Of a DNA stretch of 64,000 nucleotides, positions 5,766-6,509 are shown piece by piece. The stretch is taken from assembly GCF_003790525.1 (NCBI RefSeq), contig NZ_CP033635.1. The stretch is one strand, 5' to 3'. A model generated the notes under the pieces. The model worked only from the letters and a program-made list of their open reading frames with translations. It did not search any database and was not told where the DNA came from. The DNA is from Escherichia coli (GTDB lineage: Bacteria > Pseudomonadota > Gammaproteobacteria > Enterobacterales > Enterobacteriaceae). The position numbers were made by a program, and so were the translations under genes. The stretch's first letter is position 1; the number at the start of each line of letters is the position of its first letter.

Positions 5766-6509
5766 ACATATCCTAAAATATTATCTTTTATATTATGCGA
5801 CAACTATAAGATAAAGATTTTTTAATATCTACATTAAAAATATAAAGATTTGATAAAAAACTATAACTAATTAACCAGTAAAATAACAATAATTACTTTT
5901 AGTAGAGTTGAGTACTTCAGGTGACGCTCATTATCGTATGCATTTATATAAATGATCTATAATCATTTTTCAGTATAAGGTCGTTTCATGTTGTTGATCT
6001 GTTGAGGAATATTCATTGTCACAATTAAGATATGTTCAAGGTAAATGGTATGTTTTCTTCAAAAAATCCCGACTTCAATAGCAGACAATCTGTTGCCATC
6101 AAAAGAACAATTGAACTTTTACTATAGGCATGTCGTGACAGATAAGATTATGTTGTTAAATACACTCTAAAATTTAAATTTTACTTATCAAAACATTCAA
6201 TTTCCATGAGGATAACTTTAAATATAAATAAATGGCGCAATAAATAAAACTATTTCGTCCTTAATTTGAAGACTATTCATAACAAGCATAAAAAATAAAA
6301 ACATCAAGAATAAAAATGAAAGTTAATTTAGCGTGTGTTTTCTAAATAAAATAAAGAGATATAAAAACCAGATAATGAGGTTTTATTGTTGACCATCTTA
6401 TCTTATGCGAGGTAATTTTTGCGACGTTCATGAACTTCTGGGCATGAACAAATATAGGACTAACCGAATTTGGGGCTAACAATTCTTTAAAGGCTTTAAG
6501 GAGCATTAA
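5766..6509 (+). promoter_or_regulatory. 744-bp AT-rich leader/promoter region upstream of the fimbrial major subunit gene
   Basis: Long non-coding AT-rich interval between the divergent regulator gene and the first fimbrial gene; AAGGAG RBS at 6497-6502. Confidence 0.5.

Follow-up and report, generated by a model that had tools for sequence, protein, structure and literature searches.

A long AT-rich divergent gap separating fimbrial and regulator genes on an Escherichia coli island

What kind of DNA fills a gene-free, AT-rich gap of 744 bp upstream of a fimbrial operon? The question is raised by an Escherichia coli locus contained in a stretch of 64 000 nucleotides (RefSeq assembly GCF_003790525.1, contig NZ_CP033635.1), referred to here as the window, in which the gap occupies positions 5766–6509. 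To its left lie two regulator genes on the minus strand, S (adjacent to the gap) and R; to its right lies an operon on the plus strand with the pilin gene in first position. We read the gap, with a probability of roughly 55%, as a divergent, H-NS-prone and activator-dependent control region in which the pilin leader is short and most of the AT-rich spacer is under no constraint. It belongs to an ordinary class of regulatory DNA, here at an uncharacterised locus.

In the arrangement that we propose, the left ∼95–115 bp would form part of a portable two-regulator cassette (S and R) and would carry the promoter and 5′ untranslated region (UTR) of S, and the right ∼130 bp would provide the core promoter of the pilin operon, a leader of ∼85 nt and the ribosome-binding site. 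The AT-rich core of ∼500 bp in the middle would be junction DNA, changing more quickly than the sequence on either side. By analogy with fimbriae controlled by Rns, CfaD or AggR, we infer that the core would be coated by H-NS and the operon silent, and that R, possibly with S, would bind sites of the TATC type, relieve the silencing and activate the operon. The points counted in support are the divergent layout, the homology of R, the fold of S, the recurrent pairing of S with R, the module boundaries, a bipartite pattern of conservation and an enrichment of TTATC.

Boundaries and composition of the gap

Both boundaries are firm on the evidence of the reading frames, and the start and end coordinates are exact. 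S begins with an ATG at 5765 on the minus strand (an open reading frame, ORF, of 168 residues), and the N-terminus of its product matches its family residue for residue in the family alignment. The pilin gene (175 residues) begins with an ATG at 6510, with a Shine–Dalgarno sequence AAGGAG (6498–6503, plus strand) 6 nt upstream and an in-frame TAA immediately 5′. The same 744 bp are free of RefSeq annotation on the near-identical chromosome of E. coli SMS-3-5. With a GC fraction of 0.269 (26.9%), compared with a window median of 0.499, the gap is the longest of ∼55 annotated gaps in the 64 kb window, the next being 557, 535 and 365 bp. A preliminary description of this DNA had noted an unusually long, AT-rich, non-coding stretch preceding a pilin gene, and all of this is borne out. 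Low GC is nevertheless not confined to the gap: the whole of 4200–6500, both regulator genes included, has 26–30% GC, so that AT-richness is not special to the gap. Freedom from ORFs is in turn expected by chance at 27% GC, and the unusual feature is therefore the length of the intergenic DNA.

The same description had named the gap an untranslated leader, and this name does not fit. The gap is divergent and shared with a regulator gene on the opposite strand, and the one conserved candidate promoter within it is so close to the pilin ATG (∼120 bp) that the leader would be ∼85 nt long. The stretch is a divergent intergenic region between S (minus) and the pilin gene (plus), and not demonstrably a transcribed leader.

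Alleles and module boundaries

Of 5426 complete E. coli genomes, 73 carry the segment, each time on the chromosome and in a single copy. Window positions 5200–7100 are 100% identical to the SMS-3-5 chromosome and to 14 other complete genomes, and over positions 1–16100 the sole difference from SMS-3-5 is one single-base indel. By identity, the gap alleles of the 73 genomes form three classes (≥99% in 24, ∼96.8% in 45 and ∼93.1% in four), and a metagenomic contig, L006, carries a further allele of ∼81% identity. Strain 2016C-3878 differs from the window at 24 of the 744 positions (3.2%), all within 5952–6472, whereas its flanking genes are 99.6–100% identical (S, 99.8%; pilin, 99.6%); the gap thus diverges more than its surroundings. 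Comparison with L006 shows a bipartite pattern, with 88–92% identity at 5766–5865, 50–69% at 6016–6365 and 76–88% at 6366–6465.

In a further 70 genomes, M1/5 for example, the yibH–yibF site is occupied by another island. The M1/5-type island (locus L002, taken from NZ_CP053296.1; 7475–17604 of that locus) consists of an R homologue, an unannotated S paralogue of 173 residues (L002, 8476–8997, minus strand), a non-coding gap of 1021 bp, an unrelated pilin–chaperone–usher operon and a serine-protease autotransporter (SPATE) of 1226 residues. Its regulator cassette is ∼76% identical to that of the window and the remainder is unrelated; the homology runs from R through S and ends at 5860, 95 bp past the start codon of S. 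On the other side, the nearest fimbrial operon elsewhere is located on a Yersinia enterocolitica plasmid (usher identity 67.6%), and here the homology starts exactly at the pilin ATG, the region upstream being unrelated. The sequence 5850–6509 has no match among 72 556 plasmids, the core has no homologue in other E. coli outside this island type, and a search for decayed genes (tblastx and blastn of the gap against the Yersinia upstream region and the regions associated with S and R) returned nothing. On these comparisons the regulatory and fimbrial cassettes are interchangeable modules whose boundaries within the gap are sharp.

The alleles, the divergence relative to the flanks, the bipartite conservation and the module boundaries together divide the gap into three parts. 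The first is an S-proximal block (5766–5860, minus strand), the outer end of the regulator cassette, which is 88–100% identical in all alleles and is the only part of the gap in common with the alternative island of the 70 genomes (79–85% identity). It contains an AGGA Shine–Dalgarno sequence and −10-like TATAGT hexamers at 5808–5803 and 5865–5860, and presumably holds the promoter and 5′ UTR of S. The second is the orphan AT-rich core (∼5861–6379), the fastest-evolving part of the island, with frequent indels; it contains two GATC sites (5954 and 5996) that are not conserved, scattered TTATC/GATAA pentamers and a weak (ATAAAAA)x4 repeat at 6288–6316, the only tandem repeat in the gap. The third is a pilin-proximal block (6380–6470, plus strand), 76–100% identical in all alleles including L006, with a candidate σ70 promoter and the palindrome GTTCATGAAC.

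These boundaries also lend themselves to a plainer explanation, in which the core is functionless junction DNA left by the joining of the regulator and fimbrial cassettes, only the promoter-proximal ends matter and the length has no regulatory role. The core is indeed an orphan flanked precisely by two module boundaries, its rate of change and its indels are as expected of such DNA, and it contains no motif, structure or ORF above chance. Two results sit less well with this explanation: TTATC is enriched in the gap, with four invariant copies in or beside the core, and the gap at the same position in the sister island is longer still (1021 bp), which suggests that long gaps are tolerated or favoured. 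Moreover, in E. coli H-NS normally occupies AT-rich stretches as long as this one. We consider functionless junction DNA unlikely, although it is the main alternative and deserves serious attention.

Separately, the Y. enterocolitica plasmid (NZ_CP124239.1; locus L012, 1–2363) carries a 1.6 kb unannotated stretch and then a divergent tyrosine recombinase gene (Phage_integrase domain) upstream of the orthologous operon; a quick scan around this gene revealed no convincing flanking inverted repeats.

Regulators, promoters and other elements

R (4239–5068, minus strand) encodes an AraC-type regulator of the Rns/CsvR/ToxT family. The intact protein of SMS-3-5 has 276 residues and aligns with Rns with an E value of 1e-27 (R residues 20–269 with Rns residues 8–259); CsvR and ToxT also match. 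By alignment, the homology of intact R to these three proteins extends over its full length, although R is distant from Rns. In the window the gene has a T7 tract at 4985–4991 where SMS-3-5 has T8, which shifts the frame at codon ∼28 and leaves an ORF of 241 residues (4239–4964). The fimbrial operon is therefore probably cryptic in this window. Among 60 sampled carriers of the 73, T7 was found in ∼35 (many annotated as ‘frameshifted’) and T8 in ∼25. Tract length is not strictly tied to lineage: T7 accompanies an SMS-type gap allele in strain CM2, and T8 accompanies the 96.8% allele in KOr019. Several other A/T runs of 7–8 nt occur in 4100–6600, which covers both regulator genes and their flanks. 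The T7/T8 variation could reflect slippage-based on/off switching, pseudogenisation or homopolymer sequencing error.

S (5259–5765, minus strand) encodes a regulator whose N-terminal domain is receiver-like but shortened and whose helix–turn–helix is of the LuxR/σ70-region-4 type (PF08281, 5e-9). The near-invariant Asp54 is kept in the shortened receiver-like half, according to the family alignment. The AlphaFold model (mean predicted local distance difference test score of 79) has its best fold matches among full-length response regulators of the NarL/FixJ family (RcsB, EvgA, VraR and FixJ), and S is predicted to be a NarL/RcsB-like regulator. The family is tiny, with three clusters in an index of 5.8 billion proteins and, at E ≤ 0.001, 26 representatives among 1.84 billion protein clusters. 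Where genomic context existed, the neighbours of S were an AraC gene of 273–276 residues together with fimbrial, SPATE or dispersin loci.

S and R recur as a pair at yibH–yibF, in islands with tandem SPATE genes (tag-like), on plasmids and at a dispersin locus. They occur near fimbrial operons and autotransporters on plasmids pR9-658-3 and pSCLE3; on the former, of 15 kb, the cassette lies between autotransporter genes. In an island resembling that of TagB/TagC (loci L015–L017; L016, 1–8543) it immediately follows a single SPATE gene or two in tandem, and the published figure of the TagB/TagC island names only ‘hypothetical regulatory proteins’ (PMC6592367). An S homologue is also found among dispersin genes with AraC regulators (L018–L020). 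A bolder proposal would make the S and R pair plus a long orphan AT-rich gap a previously uncharacterised portable module for adhesin and SPATE islands, with on/off control arising from T7/T8 slippage near the 5′ end of R instead of from the gap, and with the gap as an H-NS silencing platform that renders expression strictly dependent on both R and S; we regard this as improbable and offer it tentatively.

The position of the pilin promoter can be placed only provisionally, and the candidate that we favour lies near the pilin gene. It combines TTGACC (6389–6394), an 18-nt spacer and TAATTT (6413–6418); both hexamers are unchanged in every allele, which holds for no other candidate. Promoter prediction, proposed as a check in the preliminary description, is uninformative by itself, as no candidate rises above the AT-rich background. 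Consensus and position weight matrix (PWM) scans gave nine promoter-like sites in the gap against 8.0 ± 3.2 expected, and the PWM score of the conserved candidate is 7.9, not above the null mean of 8.6. Just past the candidate −10 hexamer, GTTCATGAAC (6426–6435) is a perfectly conserved 10-bp palindrome, with a second CATGAAC 7 nt further on (6443–6449); it is confined to the pilin-proximal block and absent from the other S/R loci examined. An operator is one possible role for it, a 7-bp RNA hairpin (z = −1.8) another.

Two further candidate promoters, with hexamers at 5908/5932 and 6002/6026, have slightly higher PWM scores (8.7 and 8.5) than the proximal one, and either would give the pilin transcript a 5′ leader of 470–565 nt that might act after initiation, for example by attenuation, as a thermosensor or as a target of a small RNA (sRNA). 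A weak hairpin able to pair the Shine–Dalgarno sequence and AUG would suit such a leader. The distal hexamers, however, vary between alleles whereas the proximal hexamers are invariant, and indels are frequent in the core. RNA folding of six segments gave nothing significant: the core has z values of +0.4 to +1.6, less structure than its shuffles, and the proximal hairpin reaches −1.8. The gap holds no terminator-like sites, and its best Rfam hits score 15–20 bits against gathering thresholds of 40–100 (E > 4). A long regulatory leader is therefore doubtful in our view. The island as a whole has no Rfam match at the gathering score. Elsewhere in the window, matches above this score are a cspA thermoregulator (63506–63933, minus), a sok antitoxin RNA (61666–61762, plus) beside hokA, naRNA4 (28586–28664, minus) and ES036 (42873–42915, plus), which are ordinary E. 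coli features unrelated to the gap.

AT-rich DNA of this composition may plausibly be bound by H-NS, and activators of the Rns family are reported to oppose H-NS at promoters that are AT-rich and were acquired horizontally (PMC6392122). Sites of the Rns/AggR family consist of an A/T tract followed by TATC, 21–23 bp upstream of the −10 hexamer (PMC6392122). The pentamer TTATC/GATAA, the core of this site (PMC6392122), is enriched in the gap (nine copies against 3.2 ± 1.7 expected; p ∼ 0.002), and four copies, at 5781, 5852, 5931 and 6185, are invariant across alleles. The complete rule, taken as WWWWWWWTATC 21–23 bp 5′ of a −10 hexamer (PMC6392122), gave five sites with a correctly spaced −10-like hexamer against 1.5 ± 1.25 (p = 0.02), although these hexamers are poor (GATAAx). 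The 9-mer TTATCTTAT was considered as a binding site and rejected. Three copies lie within 800 bp and it also precedes S genes on two plasmids, but some 9-mer reached three or more copies in 30% of simulations, and TTATCTTAT is mutated in other alleles.

Several results weigh against an H-NS-prone, activator-dependent control region. The sites of the full AggR rule are only weakly enriched (11 against 6.8 ± 2.6; p = 0.08) and none is correctly placed at the conserved candidate promoter; the binding site of R may differ, because R is only distantly related to Rns. The best PWM promoter score in the gap (8.7) hardly departs from the null mean (8.6). The high-affinity H-NS motif TCGATAAATT is not enriched in the gap and the phasing of AA/TT (A-tracts) there is marginal (p = 0.08). 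Finally, a lack of function would account equally well for the rapid change in the core.

Phase variation would be another role for a long gap of this kind, either through an invertible promoter of the fim/mrp type or through a Dam–Lrp methylation switch of the pap/pef type. Pef fimbriae, relatives of this operon, are Dam-regulated, and the gap does contain a perfect inverted repeat and two GATC sites. The repeat is only 9 nt long (5806–5814/6398–6406), a length reached or exceeded in 96% of composition-matched simulations, and it is broken in other alleles; no longer one emerged from the inverted-repeat scan that the preliminary description had suggested. Family scans and annotation revealed no recombinase genes between yibH and yibF. 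The gap is one collinear piece with the same direction in all 73 genomes, although assemblies could miss minority orientations within a culture. The preliminary description had seen no convincing invertible element, and the repeat scan, the null model and the single orientation agree. It had also raised a methylation-dependent switch, and a search for GATC pairs did not bear this out. The only GATC sites, at 5954 and 5996 (∼1.7 are expected by chance for the composition, as an estimate), are 42 bp apart and not ∼102 bp as in pap. Position 5996 reads TATC in two alleles, both sites are lost in L006, and no PapI or PapB homologues were found by Pfam and NCBIfam scans of the island proteins and the six-frame translation of the gap. 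As the defining features of both types were looked for and are absent, the gap is not a pap-type or fim-type switch, and we give phase variation at this position very little credence.

A small protein or sRNA gene hidden in the gap, also raised by the preliminary description, fares no better. ORFs of 41 (6045–6170, plus), 54 (6342–6506, minus) and 24 (6405–6479, plus) residues do exist. In the first, however, seven of eight allele differences fall at codon positions 1 or 2, and the other two are frameshifted by a 1-bp deletion in 2016C-3878; the substitution pattern and frameshifts argue against coding. A Pfam search of the six-frame translation gave no signal at E ≤ 10, and with the absence of an Rfam match, a terminator or a fold more stable than shuffles, a hidden gene is scarcely credible.

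Related systems and the surrounding island

The closest parallel in regulatory logic is provided by the H-NS-silenced fimbrial promoters activated by Rns, CfaD and AggR in enterotoxigenic and enteroaggregative E. coli (CS1 coo, CFA/I and AAF). They share with the present locus an AT-rich (∼28% GC) Rns-family AraC gene beside an AT-rich fimbrial operon on acquired DNA, and such a regulator is encoded here (in intact form in SMS-3-5). TATC-type motifs are likewise enriched upstream, and a combination of anti-silencing and activation would be expected here by analogy. The differences are that R is a distant relative of Rns and is paired with S, which the Rns systems lack, that no correctly spaced site and −10 hexamer are present at the conserved promoter, and that this locus is chromosomal with fimbriae of the kappa/Pef type, whereas CS1/CFA-I and AAF are alpha-type or related to Afa/Dr.

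In scale and layout the gap resembles the csgD–csgB region of the curli genes of E. coli K-12, an AT-rich divergent gap of ∼750 bp, bound by H-NS and many other regulators, that separates the gene of a LuxR/FixJ-type regulator from an operon for fibre subunits. There is no sequence relationship, the curli secretion pathway is different, and the csg promoters and sites are mapped whereas the candidates here are predicted. The pap/pef and fimS/mrp systems also have long regulatory regions upstream of chaperone–usher pilin genes, and Pef is the nearest named structural relative of this operon, but their defining features are lacking in the gap.

The arrangement of genes also recalls the AF/R1 (afr) fimbriae of the rabbit E. 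coli strain RDEC-1. There, according to Cantey and colleagues (1999; Infect Immun 67:2292), the AraC-type AfrR and a second small regulator, AfrS, are reportedly both needed for activation of afrA and lie upstream of a pilin–usher–chaperone operon. Here the order is R, S, gap, pilin, PefC/AfrB usher and chaperone, likewise an AraC-type and a second regulator upstream of a kappa-type operon; AF/R1 is plasmid-borne, whereas the island is chromosomal. The gene names afrA–E, afrR and afrS follow published usage (PMC11184843), and a second paper describes AfrR as a putative AF/R1 transcription factor (PMC6440114).

The low-GC island itself (∼4100–16250) is inserted between yibH and yibF and is best explained as a horizontally acquired island of the adhesin/SPATE type. 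Its genes are, in order, R, S, the 744-bp gap, pilin, usher, chaperone, three more subunits and the SPATE, assigned beyond the gap by annotation and family scans. The major pilin (6510–7037, plus) is weakly PefA-like. The rest of the operon (7109–12201, plus) comprises a PefC/AfrB-family usher (1129 bits against a cutoff of 752 for the NCBI ‘PefC/AfrB’ family), a chaperone and subunits of 323, 173 and 172 residues. The S6-family SPATE (12367–16182, plus) marks the island end. In strain 32F4 the pilin (6510–7037 in the window) and the 323-residue subunit (10184–11155) are only 67.8 and 75.2% identical to those of the window, whereas the usher, chaperone and regulators are 98.5–99.8% identical; from the sequences, this looks like allelic replacement or antigenic diversification of exposed subunits.

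The island is found in ∼1.3% of complete E. coli genomes, among them isolates resembling extraintestinal pathogenic E. coli and animal isolates, and the locus is uncharacterised. Two by-products of the analysis are a rare NarL/RcsB-like family partnered with an Rns-type regulator beside fimbrial, SPATE or dispersin genes, and an activator gene, R, whose reading frame is shifted at a homopolymer in over half of the carriers sampled. If the gap is indeed a divergent, H-NS-prone control region, it would be one more example of acquired adhesin operons that are silenced and then switched on, which would not be surprising and would help in the annotation of such islands.
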